NCBI RefSeq assembly: GCF_046105845.1
Contig: NZ_CP151004.1
DNA from: Escherichia coli
GTDB lineage: Bacteria; Pseudomonadota; Gammaproteobacteria; Enterobacterales; Enterobacteriaceae
Reading direction: 5' to 3' (one strand)
Length of the DNA: 64,000 nt
Shown here in pieces: positions 29,901-35,900 of this stretch (its first letter is position 1; every line of letters starts with the position of its first letter). The position numbers were made by a program.

Positions 29901-32900
29901 ACGTGCGGATTCACACAGTTCTTCTCAACCTTTCCTTGTAACGCATCAATCAAATTATCCACGGCACAGGCGGCCATGCCATAACGCGTCTCATGGGTGG
30001 CAGATCCAATATGCGGTACTGCGACGACGTTGGCCATTGAGAGCAACGGCGAATCTACGGAAAGTGGCTCTTGTTCGAAGACATCCAGCCCGGCGGCGTG
30101 AATTTCCCCTTTCTGCAATGCAGCAATCAGTGCATTTTCATCAACCACCGGGCCACGTCCGGCATTAATGAAAATGGCGGAGGATTTCATTTTGGCGAAT
30201 TGTTCTGCGCCAAACAGATGATGCGTTTCATCAGTTAACGGCAGGATCAGGCAAACGAAATCTGACTCTTGTAACAGTGTATCCAAATCGCAGTAGCGGG
30301 CGTTGAAGCGTTCTTCTGCTTCTTTATGGTGGCGGCGCGCGTTATAGAGGATGGGCATGTTGAAGCCAAAGTGCGCACGTTGTGCCAGCGCCATGCCGAT
30401 CCGTCCCATCCCGACAATGCCCAGTGTTTTATGGTGAACGTCAGTGCCATACCAGTCCGGACCTATGCTCGCGGTCCATTCGCCTGCTTTTACTCGTTCT
30501 GCTACCTCCACAACCCGACGAGCGGTAGACAACACCAGCGCCATCAGCGTATCGGCGACGGTTTCTGTTAATACGGTTGGCGTGTGCATCAGCAGAATTT
30601 TTCGGGCGGTAAGCGCATCGACATCAAAATTGTCATAGCCGACGGAGATCGTTGATGTGGCACGCAGTTTCGGCATTTTTTCCAGCAATGCGGCATCAAC
30701 ATTCTCGTTTGAACCCAGTAAACCTTCAGCTTCGGCAAAAATTGCTGCATTTTGTTCGACGGTTTGTGGGCTGAGGTTTGCCACCTGGTGAACGGTGAAA
30801 TGCTCTTGCAGGCGTTGCAGTAAATCATCAGGTAAGGCTTTGTAGAGGATAACGGACGGCTTCATGCTTCTCTCCATTCACTGATAAGGCGATCACCTTA
30901 GCCTGAAATATGATGAAGGAAAACTGAAGAATGCCAGGTGATTTCTGCATCACCTGGCATGAAAGGGATTACAGCGGGCTTAAGGTAATTTCTACACGGC
31001 GGTTTTGCGCCTTACCTTCTGCGGTGCTGTTGCTGGCGATTGGGTTAGCCGGGCCAAGGCCCTGAGTACGGATGCGGCTGGCGTCCACGCCCTGGGTGAT
31101 CAACGCGCTGGCAACGGAATCCGCACGCTGCTGGGAGAGACGCATGTTCAGGTCGTGACCACCCGTGCTGTCGGTATAACCAATCACGTTAACCGCCGTT
31201 TTCGGATACTCTTTCAGCACCATTGCCACGCCGGTCAGGGTGTTAGCGCCCGCCGGTTTCAGGGTCGCGCTGCTGCTGTCGAAGGTCACATTGTTCGGCA
31301 TATTGAGGATAATGTTATCCCCGCTGCGGGTTACGCTAACACCAGTGCCGCGCATTTTGTCACGCAGCTTCGCTTCCTGTACATCCATGTAATAACCAAC
31401 GCCGCCGCCCAGAGCTGCACCCGCTGCTGCGCCAATCAGCGCGCCTTTACCGCGATCTTTCTTCGAAGAAGAGAGCGCACCAATACCCGCGCCAACGAGA
31501 GAGCCCAGACCTGCGCCGATAGCAGATTTACCTGCTTCGCGTTCGCCAGTGTAAGGGTTAGTTGTGCAGCCAGATACCGCCAGAGCGCCACTCACTACGG
31601 CGGCAATAAGATAAACACGTTTCTTCATTGTTAATCCTTAATAAACTTTTTATTCTTTGCCACGGGTTCCGTGGCGGGAGATTATGCCGCGTGAACATGA
31701 AGATTATTCCTGGGAATACTCGGAAATTTGTAAGTAATATTTAACTGCTCAATACATCTAACCTTTCAGGAGTCTTCGGTTTGGCCAACTCATCCTCACG
31801 ATATTCCGTTCTGACTGCCGCCCACTGGGGGCCCATGCTGGTTGAAACCGACGGCGAAACCGTGTTTAGCTCGCGTGGCGCGTTAGTCACAGGAATGGAA
31901 AACTCCTTGCAGAGCGCGGTTCGCGACCAGGTTCACAGCAATACGCGGGTACGATTTCCAATGGTGCGCAAAGGCTTTCTCGCGTCACCGGAAAACCCGC
32001 AAGGCATTCGCGGGCAGGATGAATTTGTTCGTGTGAGTTGGGATGAGGCGCTGGAGCTTATTCACCAACAACATAAACGCATTCGTGAGGCTTATGGTCC
32101 GGCATCGATTTTTGCTGGTTCCTACGGCTGGCGTTCAAACGGCGTGCTGCATAAGGCCTCGACATTATTACAACGCTATATGGCGCTTGCAGGCGGTTAT
32201 ACCGGGCATCTGGGGGATTATTCGACCGGTGCAGCACAGGCGATCATGCCGTATGTCGTGGGGGGCAGCGAAGTTTATCAACAGCAAACCAGTTGGCCGT
32301 TGGTGCTGGAACATAGCGATGTCGTGGTGCTGTGGAGTGCTAACCCACTCAATACGCTGAAAATTGCGTGGAATGCATCCGATGAGCAGGGGCTTTCTTA
32401 CTTTTCTGCACTGCGTGACAGCAGGAAAAAGCTGATCTGCATTGATCCAATGCGATCGGAAACCGTCGATTTCTTTGGCGATAAAATGGAGTGGGTGGCA
32501 CCGCACATGGGCACCGATGTTGCGCTGATGCTGGGGATCGCCTATACGCTGGTGGAAAATGGTTGGCACGACGAAGCGTTTCTGGCGCGTTGCACCACAG
32601 GTTATGCCGTCTTCGCCTCTTATTTGCTGGGCGAGAGTGACGGAATAGCCAAAACCGCCGAATGGGCGGCAGGGATTTGTGGGGTTAACGCAGAGAAAAT
32701 CCGCGAGCTGGCGGCTCTTTTCCACCAAAACACGACCATGCTGATGGCTGGCTGGGGAATGCAGCGTCAACAGTTTGGTGAGCAAAAACATTGGATGATC
32801 GTCACGCTGGCGGCAATGTTGGGGCAAATCGGCACACCCGGCGGCGGTTTTGGTCTTTCTTACCATTTTGCCAATGGTGGTAACCCCACGCGGCGTTCTG

Positions 32901-35900
32901 CGGTGCTCTCTTCCATGCAGGGCAGCTTGCCTGGCGGCACCGATGCGGTGGATAAAATCCCTGTTGCCCGCATTGTTGAAGCACTGGAAAACCCCGGTGG
33001 CGCATATCAACATAACGGTATGGACCGACATTTCCCGGATATTCGTTTTATCTGGTGGGCGGGCGGTGCCAACTTTACTCATCATCAGGATACCAATCGC
33101 CTGATCCGTGCCTGGCAAAAACCGGAGCTGGTGGTGATCTCTGAATGCTTCTGGACGGCTGCGGCGAAACACGCGGATATCGTTCTGCCTGCGACCACTT
33201 CGTTTGAGCGTAATGATCTCACCATGACCGGCGATTACAGCAATCAGCATCTGGTGCCGATGAAACAAGTGGTGCCGCCACGTTATGAAGCGCGTAATGA
33301 TTTTGATGTCTTTGCCGAGTTGAGTGAACGTTGGGAGAAGGGCGGCTATGCGCGGTTTACGGAAGGAAAAAGTGAGCTGCAATGGCTGGAAACGTTTTAT
33401 AACGTTGCCCGGCAGCGCGGGGCAAGCCAGCAGGTTGAATTGCCGCCATTTGCTGAGTTCTGGCAAGCCAACCAGTTAATTGAGATGCCGGAAAACCCGG
33501 ACAGCGAGCGGTTTATTCGCTTCGCCGATTTTCGCCGCGATCCGCAGGCGCATCCATTAAAAACTGCCAGTGGTAAGATTGAAATCTTCTCGCAGCGTAT
33601 TGCCGATTACGCTTATCCGGATTGCCCTGGGCATCCAATGTGGCTGGAGCCGGACGAATGGCAGGGCAATGCCGAACCGGAACAGTTGCAGGTACTTTCT
33701 GCTCATCCGGCACATCGTCTGCATAGCCAGCTGAATTACAGTTCTCTGCGCGAATTGTACGCGGTGGCAAATCGTGAGCCTGTCACCATTCATCCTGACG
33801 ATGCCCAGGCGCGCGGCATACAAGATGGCGATATTGTTCGGTTGTGGAACGCACGCGGGCAAATTCTTGCCGGAGCGGTCATTAGCGAGGGAATTAAACC
33901 TGGCGTGATTTGTATTCATGAAGGGGCATGGCCGGATCTGGATTTAACCGCTGACGGTATTTGTAAAAACGGCGCGGTGAACGTTCTGACCAAAGATCTC
34001 CCCAGCTCGCGGCTGGGGAATGGCTGTGCGGGTAATACGGCGCTGGCATGGCTGGAAAAATACAACGGTCCGGAACTGACACTTACAGCGTTTGAACCAC
34101 CGGCCAGCTCATAATCCAGGTGGGTAGTTGGGTTTCATCCTGCCATGCGCAGTCGACAATGTGAAAACCCTGCGCATGGTAAAAATATATCGCCGGTTGA
34201 TTTTTTTGATAAACCTCCAGCATCAGATGGGGATGGCGCTGCTGCACATACTGCATTAGCGCCTTACCAATACCGCGTCTGACGGCCTTCGGTGCGACAA
34301 ACATTGCAGCCAGAAATCGGCCTTCCATAATGCTGACAAAACCGAGAAGCTTACCGTCTTCTTCCCAGACCCAGTTTTGCGCGTTGGCAAGATAGGCATC
34401 CCGCACCAGCGGAATGCAATCACGCCAGTAATTCGCTTTTATAAAGGGATGCCCCCAGGTTGTACTTTCCAGCCACAGTTCGAGGATCGCGGGGAGTTCT
34501 GAACGTTGCGCTTCCCGAATCATGGTTTATTTCCCGGATAGCAACAGCAGCCAACCACATGATCATTCACCAGCCCACATGCCTGCATAAAGGAGTAACA
34601 GATTGTGGTACCAACAAACTTAAAACCACGCTTTTTCAGGGCTTTAGATAGAGCGTCGGAGGCGGGCGTAGATGTAGGGATTTCGCTCAACGTTGTGGCT
34701 TGTGTCACCTGTGGTTGATGATTGACAAACGACCAGACAAAGTCGGCAAACGGTTCGCCGTTCTGTTCCATTTGCAGGTACGCCCGCGCATTACCAATAA
34801 TTGCCTGAATTTTCCCGCGATGGCGGATAATCCCGGCGTACTGTACCAGTCTTTCGACATCCTCTTCCTGCATTGCAGCCACCTTCACCGGATCGAACTG
34901 ATGAAAGCTGGCGCGATAGTTTTCGCGTTTTTTGAGGACGGTGATCCACGATAATCCAGCCTGCTGCCCTTCAAGGCAGATCATTTCGAACAGTTTTTTA
35001 CTGTCAGTTTCAGGCACGCCCCATTCATTATCATGGTAGGCAATATAAAGCGGGTCCTGACTCACCCAGCCGCAACGTTCCATACTTTCCCTCGCTATGT
35101 ACCCGATCGTAAAAATTTCAGCCGCTTTTCTTGACGCATCGGTGAAAAAGTCAATATTTAATACAGGGCTACTATGCCCGATATCCTTCATACAATGACA
35201 ATAATATTGCCGAATTCGGCTCTTCCCTGGAGTCGTGTTAATGATCATAAAAAAAAGCGGTGGTCGCTGGCAGCTAAGCCTGCTGGCGAGTGTGGTAATC
35301 AGTGCCTTTTTTCTCAACACAGCTTACGCCTGGCAACAAGAATATATCGTTGATACGCAACCCGGACATTCCACAGAGCGTTACACCTGGGATAGCGATC
35401 ATCAACCTGATTACAACGATATTTTGTCGCAACGTATTCAAAGTAGCCAAAGGGCGCTGGGACTGGAAGTCAATCTGGCGGAAGAAACTCCTGTGGATGT
35501 GACCAGCAGTATGAGTATGGGCTGGAATTTTCCTTTATATGAGCAGGTTACAACCGGCCCGGTCGCGGCATTACATTACGATGGCACAACCACCTCGATG
35601 TATAACGAGTTTGGCGACAGTACTACCACGCTGGCCGATCCGTTATGGCATGCCAGCGTGAGTACCTTAGGCTGGCGTGTTGACTCCCGGCTTGGCGATC
35701 TCCGACCCTGGGCGCAAATCAGCTATAACCAGCAATTTGGCGAGAATATCTGGAAGGCGCAATCAGGCCTGAGCCGGATGACGGCGACAAACCAGAACGG
35801 CAACTGGCTGGATGTCACCGTAGGCGCTGATATGTTGCTCAATCAAAATATTGCTGCCTATGCTGCGCTATCTCAGGCAGAAAATACCACTAACAATAGC

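Follow-up and report, generated by a model that had tools for sequence, protein, structure and literature searches.

The TTG start codon of bisC and its convergent 3' overlap with yiaC in Escherichia coli

The yiaD / bisC / yiaC-tag locus in the window, a stretch of 64,000 nucleotides from Escherichia coli (NCBI RefSeq assembly GCF_046105845.1, contig NZ_CP151004.1), is ordinary for the species and correctly annotated. Taking the observations together, it is very probable that BisC is translated from TTG 31781 in an otherwise unremarkable locus and that transcription ends within the opposing gene, by way of Rho on the yiaC side. The TTG start and the 32-bp overlap with yiaC are already known. 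Because both are present in the reference annotation and have published experimental backing, the finding is an ordinary one. Its significance beyond annotation hygiene is small. The current bisC model (TTG, 777 aa) is confirmed to be right.

The genes and the overlap were placed as follows.

31781..34114, + strand: bisC coding sequence, 777 aa, TTG start, TAA stop (ORF listing; PGAP and RefSeq K-12 models identical)
34083..34523, - strand: yiaC coding sequence, GNAT lysine acetyltransferase/lactylase, 146 aa, ATG start (ORF, profile and annotation)
34520..35083, - strand: tag coding sequence, 3-methyladenine DNA glycosylase I (NF007678, 429.6 bits; annotation)
34083..34114, coding on both strands: 32 bp shared by the 3' ends of the convergent genes bisC and yiaC

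By annotation and profile match, the product of bisC is a biotin / free methionine-S-sulfoxide reductase, a Mo-bisMGD enzyme. The whole protein scored 1097.2 bits against TIGR00509 (bisC_fam; cutoff 1017.55), with positions 1-768 of the 772 in the profile aligning to BisC residues 13-775. YiaC matched the equivalog NF007853 with 266.6 bits (cutoff 125) over positions 1-145 of 146. Direct reading of the sequence put the bisC stop TAA at 34112-34114 and the yiaC stop TAA on the reverse complement of 34083-34085. The original prediction that the bisC stop codon falls within the 3' end of yiaC, with 32 bp in common, was thus confirmed by ORF listing and reading, with the overlap at 34083-34114. 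In MG1655 (NC_000913.3), b3551 occupies 3714061-3716394 and b3550 occupies 3713652-3714092, again sharing 32 bp. The K-12 products (NP_418007.3 for bisC and NP_418006.1 for yiaC) have the same lengths of 777 and 146 aa, and the TTG, the Shine-Dalgarno sequence and the overlap are identical to those found here; the differences are strain-level substitutions only. The bisC and yiaC models of the closest E. coli genome annotated by PGAP are also the same. The 3.1-kb stretch here has 95-99% identity to most E. coli genomes, and the locus was found in 5422 of 5426 complete genomes of the species.

Beyond E. coli, 94 species representatives from 20 named genera were compared; the two genes overlap in 92 of them, by 23, 32 or 38 bp, and always in one relative reading frame. 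The length of the overlap tracks where the antisense stop codon falls. The tail of YiaC would then be an antisense reading of the C-terminal codons of BisC up to the first stop. The bisC/yiaC layout is a real and conserved gene arrangement, and an artefact of chance open reading frames is excluded. On the far side of yiaC, the TGA stop of tag and the ATG of yiaC share the four bases ATGA at 34520-34523. This overlap makes co-transcription of the two genes probable and suggests a tag-yiaC operon. yiaC converges on bisC, and its last 32 bp lie within the 3' end of bisC.

The N-terminus of BisC is settled in favour of the TTG codon by the position of the Shine-Dalgarno sequence, the conservation of the fold and of orthologs, and published tetracycline ribosome profiling (TetRP). 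The elements of the start region are these.

31742..31744, + strand: in-frame TAA closing the bisC frame 5' of the TTG (translation of 31661-31870)
31768..31772, + strand: Shine-Dalgarno sequence AGGAG, 8 nt 5' of the bisC TTG (direct reading)
31781..31783, + strand: bisC initiation codon TTG (sequence; first start after the in-frame stop; K-12 TetRP; species survey)
31835..31837, + strand: internal ATG (Met19), the annotated K-12 start in 2006, unused as a start (sequence, TetRP, orthologs)

The in-frame TAA lies 12 codons upstream of the TTG, and frame translation showed that TTG 31781 is the first ATG, GTG or TTG in the open bisC frame. The claim that the frame opens at this TTG, with the first in-frame ATG at 31835, 18 codons downstream, was exact by ORF listing and reading; this ATG is codon 19 of bisC. 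Very probably the AGGAG situated 8 nt upstream directs translation at TTG 31781 to give a cytoplasmic molybdoenzyme of 777 aa, in which the ATG of codon 19 would encode an internal methionine. Between -45 and +66 of the start, a single synonymous base differs from K-12. The TTG and its Shine-Dalgarno sequence were kept in 9 loci from 7 genera. Among the Enterobacteriaceae species representatives, the start linked to a Shine-Dalgarno sequence was TTG in 47 of 51, GTG in the other 4 and ATG in none, and AGGAG or GGAG was present 6-10 nt ahead of it in all 51. From this conservation we infer that the non-ATG start holds the synthesis of BisC low, perhaps through selection for low expression. The family-wide survey indicates that neither the rarity of a start codon nor the overlap of two coding 3' ends prevents such features from staying stable over long evolutionary distances.

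The protein itself is consistent with this start. The first 18 or so residues of BisC probably form the beginning of the conserved DMSO-reductase fold. The segment VLTAAHWGP (BisC residues 7-18), which sits upstream of Met19 and within that fold, is invariant among orthologs with a full N-terminus. BisC has the Mo-bisMGD fold in common with the Rhodobacter DMSO reductase (DorA; PDB 1eu1, 1dmr) and with TMAO reductases (7l5i), and sequence matches to solved structures of such reductases begin at BisC residues 7-10 and extend to residue 775. In the alignments of BisC to 7l5i (E 3e-278) and 1eu1 (E 4e-248), the segment GDYSTGAAQ is conserved. We take this segment to hold the Mo-ligand serine. Periplasmic DMSO/TMAO reductases carry a Tat signal, whereas BisC starts at about the position where the fold starts and has no leader, which fits a cytoplasmic enzyme. 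Some deposited reductase chains have a longer N-terminus, and the DMSO reductase chains of 823 aa align from residue 47. By inspection, the BisC N-terminus has neither the RR motif nor the hydrophobic core of a twin-arginine signal.

Two other readings of the start have to be weighed. In one of them, ATG 31835 is the sole start and BisC has 759 aa, as in the 2006 annotation of K-12 and in the alternative left open by the original prediction. ATG is the most common start codon, and some automatic calls, such as P0086 (759 aa, MLVDTDG...) and P0033, place the start at this codon or close to it. However, TetRP in K-12, a strain other than the source of this window, gave signals of 78.6/80.1/91.1 on the bisC TTG and 0/0/0 on the ATG 54 nt downstream, and in the same study the bisC start was recorded as shifted by -54 nt in U00096.3 relative to the 2006 annotation. 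Initiating ribosomes were therefore on the TTG only, which contradicts translation from the ATG alone. In addition, the ATG lacks a usable Shine-Dalgarno sequence, because the run of G residues before it ends just 3 nt upstream. A start at Met19 would also remove the invariant VLTAAHWGP that aligns to the solved structures, and Citrobacter and Salmonella have Ile or Val at position 19, encoded by ATA or GTC. We regard a sole start at the ATG as scarcely credible, and gene callers that pick Met19 are wrong. In the other reading, both the TTG and the ATG of codon 19 are used, giving a long and a short isoform. TetRP did detect a two-start signal in 22 E. coli genes, but the downstream site of bisC was not one with signal (0/0/0), Met19 is not conserved, and the short form would miss part of the N-terminal domain, so dual initiation is very improbable, though slightly less so than the ATG-only start. 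The N-terminus had been called ambiguous. This was true historically, when bisC of K-12 was annotated from the ATG lying 54 nt further downstream, but it no longer holds now that the Shine-Dalgarno sequence, the fold and orthologs, and TetRP all indicate the TTG.

The start of bisC at the TTG resembles those of other E. coli genes reannotated to UUG by TetRP, such as ybeZ, yliA and ftsH, in which an upstream TTG with a Shine-Dalgarno sequence replaced a downstream ATG and for which the reannotation likewise rests on the signal of initiating ribosomes. bisC is outside the set of TetRP genes examined with lacZ fusions; its 'confirmation' field reads '6. nt', which we understood as not tested. 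The sources searched, among them the supplements of the TRAINSPOTTER N-terminomics work (no BisC entry), contained no N-terminal peptide of BisC.

At the other end of the gene, bisC and yiaC have no spacer between them and thus each transcript must end inside the opposite gene. The features that may be involved are listed here.

33781..33881, - strand: Rho termination region, approximate, centre ~33831, antisense to bisC, 252 nt past the yiaC stop
33998..34020, - strand: candidate stem-loop A, in the bisC codons for L-P-S-S-R-L-G, 63-85 nt beyond the stop of yiaC
34143..34179, + strand: candidate stem-loop B, 29-65 nt past the bisC stop, in yiaC codons

The claim that no intergenic terminator is possible stands in the trivial sense that there is no intergenic DNA. 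However, a terminator does exist, as a Rho region inside bisC on the antisense strand, ~250 nt past the yiaC stop. In Supplementary file 2 of Adams et al. (2021), a Rho region with a score of 7.3 and p = 5.5e-14 is placed on the antisense strand of bisC, at K-12 3714344 (+); these regions are coarse, being defined by bicyclomycin-sensitive readthrough in 800-nt windows. Its coordinate was moved from K-12 by offset, bisC being 2334 nt long in both genomes. As the region lies antisense within bisC, termination is placed inside the opposing gene and not in an intergenic spacer. In the first 300 nt beyond the yiaC stop, the RNA of the yiaC strand had a C/G ratio of 1.34, which peaked at 2.43; the value for the antisense of bisC overall was 1.21. 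We propose that the yiaC transcript is ended by Rho ~250 nt into antisense bisC, as in K-12, and that the conserved stem-loop A may set a trimmed 3' end. In the curated Term-seq tables of the same study there was no 3' end for bisC, for yiaC or for K-12 37129xx-37140xx, and the sole entry was the Rho region at 3714344; the absent ends may reflect expression below detection. The supplements of SMRT-Cappable-seq mention neither bisC nor yiaC.

It could be supposed instead that stem-loop A, although it lies within bisC codons, acts as an intrinsic terminator for tag-yiaC. It was a match in the scan for terminator-like sites: 63 nt past the yiaC stop there is a G+C-rich stem of 9 pairs (6 G-C) with AUCUUUGG behind it. 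Most genera have retained CCC and GGG, the rare codons from which the stem is built, and the stem occurs with C:G, G:C and U:A pair types, the last two as compensatory variants. In the alignment 86.8% of its cells were paired compared to 81.8% after shuffling, and none of 500 shuffles reached the observed value, these statistics being without correction for phylogeny. The covariation is no more than suggestive. However, one slid position used as a control showed similar covariation, and Klebsiella, Raoultella and Salmonella no longer have the stem. With 4 U in 8 the U-tract is weak, no 3' end is placed there in the curated Term-seq tables, and the bicyclomycin sensitivity of the readthrough indicates Rho. 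We consider an intrinsic terminator at this site unlikely and retain termination by Rho as the better explanation. The scan as a whole gave 5 terminator-like sites against 5.2 from shuffled sequence, so there was no enrichment, and a search for a hairpin plus U-tract around the bisC and yiaC stops gave zero matches. Stem-loop B is a perfect 10-bp inverted repeat, CCATGCGCAG / CTGCGCATGG, without a U-tract as judged from sequence and fold. Its core is kept across genera, mostly in invariant columns. Its pairing was 85.2% against 84.4% and its covariation score was matched in 48 of 500 shuffles, also without phylogeny correction; the covariation test thus gave stem-loop B no support beyond the invariant columns.

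The original prediction also held that the convergent transcripts must overlap. This is supported by the ExcludonFinder list for MG1655, in which yiaC-bisC is one of 165 pairs; a listing in this excludome means that the overlap of transcripts was seen in 50% or more of the 58 RNA-seq samples. The arrangement is like the convergent excludons of the concept of Sesto et al., in which convergent neighbours have overlapping transcripts, but in bisC/yiaC the coding regions themselves overlap and not just the 3' UTRs. It is conceivable that the overlap works as a functional excludon, in which antisense pairing or polymerase collision makes bisC and tag-yiaC mutually inhibitory. The overlapping transcripts in those samples, the overlap in 92 of 94 species with the same relative frame throughout and the stem-loops on either side of it would agree with such a role. 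On the other hand, neither anticorrelated expression nor dependence on RNase III has been reported for bisC/yiaC, synteny and dual-coding constraint alone could keep the overlap, and its variation in length simply follows the position of the antisense stop. We find a functional excludon unlikely. With a similarly low probability, the weak start of bisC and the overlap, both of which occur in at least 20 Enterobacteriaceae genera, and the embedded stem-loop could together mean active selection for throttled translation of BisC, with an excludon-type coupling between sulfoxide repair and tag-yiaC. If it were true that the overlap or the embedded stem-loops regulate these genes, this would be a further example of excludon-type control rather than a new principle.

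In the window, on an E. coli chromosome, the genes around bisC are ordered ghrB - yiaD - bisC - yiaC - tag - yhjY. The products of bisC and yiaC were identified by NCBIfam models (TIGR00509, 1097 bits against a cutoff of 1017.55, and NF007853, 266.6 bits against a cutoff of 125), and Tag (NF007678) is encoded upstream of yiaC. The boundaries of the two converging genes, with their overlap of 32 bp, are already in the reference annotation, being identical in the PGAP annotation of the closest genome and in curated RefSeq K-12. Together with the ORF listing and direct reading, these records bear out the TTG at 31781, the ATG 18 codons on, the stop position and the overlap with yiaC described in the original prediction.

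Coding features and start signals of bisC and yiaC
31742-31744, plus strand: in-frame TAA before bisC (frame translation)
31768-31772, plus strand: Shine-Dalgarno (SD) sequence AGGAG of bisC, 8 nt upstream of TTG
31781..34114, plus strand: bisC frame, 777 aa, opening with TTG (ORF listing)
31781-31783, plus strand: bisC TTG (direct sequence reading)
31835-31837, plus strand: next in-frame ATG of bisC, codon 19 (direct sequence reading)
34112-34114, plus strand: bisC stop TAA (direct sequence reading)
34083..34523, minus strand: yiaC frame, 146 aa, opening with ATG (ORF listing)
Reverse complement of 34083-34085, minus strand: yiaC stop (direct sequence reading)

The bisC start is settled as TTG, and the view that the N-terminus of BisC is ambiguous is outdated. 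Initiating ribosomes were mapped with tetracycline (TetRP) by Nakahigashi et al. 2016 (PMC4909307), whose Table S2 (row 52) moves the bisC start of the 2006 annotation 54 nt upstream, to the TTG, in agreement with the 2014 record U00096.3. The TTG gave a signal of 78.6/80.1/91.1 and the old ATG one of 0/0/0. A check proposed in the original prediction therefore already exists for K-12; it contradicts initiation only at ATG 31835, with no sign of dual initiation. From -45 to +66 of the start, a single synonymous base separates the window from K-12, so this result transfers to the window. No N-terminal peptide of BisC was found in the literature searched.

The sequence points the same way. None of the 12 codons between the in-frame TAA and the TTG is ATG, GTG or TTG, so no earlier start is possible; before ATG 31835 there is only a G-run, ending 3 nt upstream. 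The match to the bisC_fam profile opens at residue 13, and alignments to solved DMSO and TMAO reductases open at residues 7-10; a BisC begun at Met19 would be missing part of the conserved fold. In the 120 closest 90%-identity clusters, every orthologue with a full N-terminus carried VLTAAHWGP upstream of position 19, where Citrobacter and Salmonella have Ile or Val. Gene calls extended further upstream all had Leu at the start position and Q-E across the SD. The TTG was preceded by an SD in Salmonella, Citrobacter, Kosakonia, Enterobacter, Pluralibacter, Pseudocitrobacter and divergent Escherichia DNA; it read CAGGAG except in Pluralibacter (AGGTGA), and outside it the upstream DNA was unrelated among these genera.

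A DNA-pattern scan of species-representative genomes gave at least 120 loci, 96 with bisC and 24 chance matches among the matches listed. It reached only close relatives (75-95% aa identity), with starts inferred from position and SD. Among these matches, our analysis adds that both the non-ATG start and the overlap are conserved family-wide. Of the listed loci, 51 reach the 5' end of bisC; the start linked to an SD was TTG in 47, GTG in 4 (Shimwellia, Leclercia and two Silvania) and ATG in none. Convergent yiaC was also present in 94 listed loci, covering 20 named genera, where the overlap was 38 bp in 45, 32 bp in 39 and 23 bp in 8, the other two being disrupted outliers. Each of the three lengths is 2 mod 3, so the two genes keep a fixed relative frame and the yiaC stop alone shifts.

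Family profiles were matched almost to the last residue by both proteins, with no abnormal extension in either gene. The end of BisC, ...TAF(D/E)PPAS, read antisense is the YiaC tail, which is WQADQTP in most genera and WPVVQTL in K-12-like E. coli. Loci of the 23-bp class usually have N (AAT) at this BisC position, not D (GAT); the change of GAT to AAT is a change of CAA to TAA in yiaC and shortens YiaC by 3 residues, so that one substitution alters both proteins. This class includes the surveyed loci L035, L043, L069, L075 and L100, among others.

The expectation that convergent transcripts overlap is supported by ExcludonFinder (PMC12288877), in which yiaC-bisC is one of 165 convergent excludons that appear in at least 50% of the 58 RNA-seq samples of MG1655. 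It had also been held that no intergenic terminator is possible. There is indeed no spacer, but termination has nonetheless been mapped inside bisC, in a Rho termination region antisense to the gene at K-12 3714344 (+) (Rho score 7.3, p = 5.5e-14; Adams et al. 2021, PMC7815308, Supplementary file 2).

Termination region and candidate hairpins beside the overlap
About 33831, minus strand: Rho termination region antisense to bisC, 252 nt beyond the yiaC stop (from K-12 3714344)
33998-34020, minus strand: stem-loop A, G+C-rich, 63 nt past the yiaC stop
34143-34179, plus strand: stem-loop B, inside yiaC, 29 nt past the bisC stop

Termination inside bisC is thus at least partly Rho-dependent. The RNA C/G ratio before the region on that strand was 1.34, with a peak of 2.43 and a background of 1.21. 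Rho limits antisense transcription, and termination within bisC fits that role. On the yiaC side, the absence of a spacer is thus handled by ending transcription within the opposing gene. No mapped 3' end of the bisC transcript was found in the published transcript-end data searched. The coding and transcript overlaps are already documented, and nothing here departs from known biology, including the conservation and stem-loop candidates we add; the original observation was accurate, but its interpretation was only partly right and out of date as to the start.

The two stem-loops are candidates. Stem-loop A is formed by the bisC codons CTC CCC AGC TCG CGG CTG GGG (L-P-S-S-R-L-G), and in the listed loci its rare codons were kept (CCC in 75/92, GGG in 57/92). 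It was kept in most genera there, with some compensatory synonymous changes, and was absent in Klebsiella, Raoultella, Salmonella, Shimwellia and Franconibacter. The outer synonymous pair is found as C:G, as G:C in Kosakonia, Trabulsiella, Phytobacter and Pluralibacter, and as T:A in Superficieibacter. Paired cells reached 86.8% against 81.8% in shuffles (0 of 500 reached it) and cells changed on both sides numbered 15 against 6.2, in statistics that ignore relatedness; one slid control gave a similar covariation score. The tail after the hairpin is only AUCUUUGG, and no Term-seq 3' end is recorded at it. We regard stem-loop A as a hairpin that may define a 3' end, and not as a terminator that has been demonstrated. 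In the window strain, stem-loop B forms a perfect 10-bp inverted repeat (CCATGCGCAG ... CTGCGCATGG), with a core conserved across genera in the listed loci; it consists mostly of invariant yiaC codons (Y-H-A ... A-W-Q), and its covariation was not above controls.

The 3.1-kb bisC-yiaC stretch is present in 5422 of 5426 complete E. coli genomes. Only 6 of the 5422 were at least 99% identical to 31600-34700 and nearly all the rest were 95-99% identical, so the lineage of the window is sparsely sampled; the nearest genome was ECA64, from a dairy product in France. Several of the E. coli BisC variants (proteins P0004-P0010, P0023 and P0082) are 691-749 aa long with normal N- and C-termini, and so seem either to have internal deletions or to result from gene-model fusion. 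About 95 nt before the TTG, the spacer between divergent yiaD and bisC contains a promoter-like TTGCCA-17-GATTAT (31657-31685, plus strand), which matches by consensus alone; sites of this kind were no commoner here than in shuffles. Beyond yiaD, gene content varies by genus (loci L004-L008 against L003/L009): ghrB-yiaF in Escherichia and Salmonella, and a LacI-type regulator, an unnamed gene and a PfkB kinase gene in Citrobacter, Kosakonia (which is without yiaD), Enterobacter, Pluralibacter and Pseudocitrobacter. At 34520-34523 on the minus strand, the TGA that ends tag and the ATG that opens yiaC share the sequence ATGA, an arrangement suggestive of a tag-yiaC operon with translational coupling. 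In the other genera, tag and yiaC as called overlap by about 20-23 nt.
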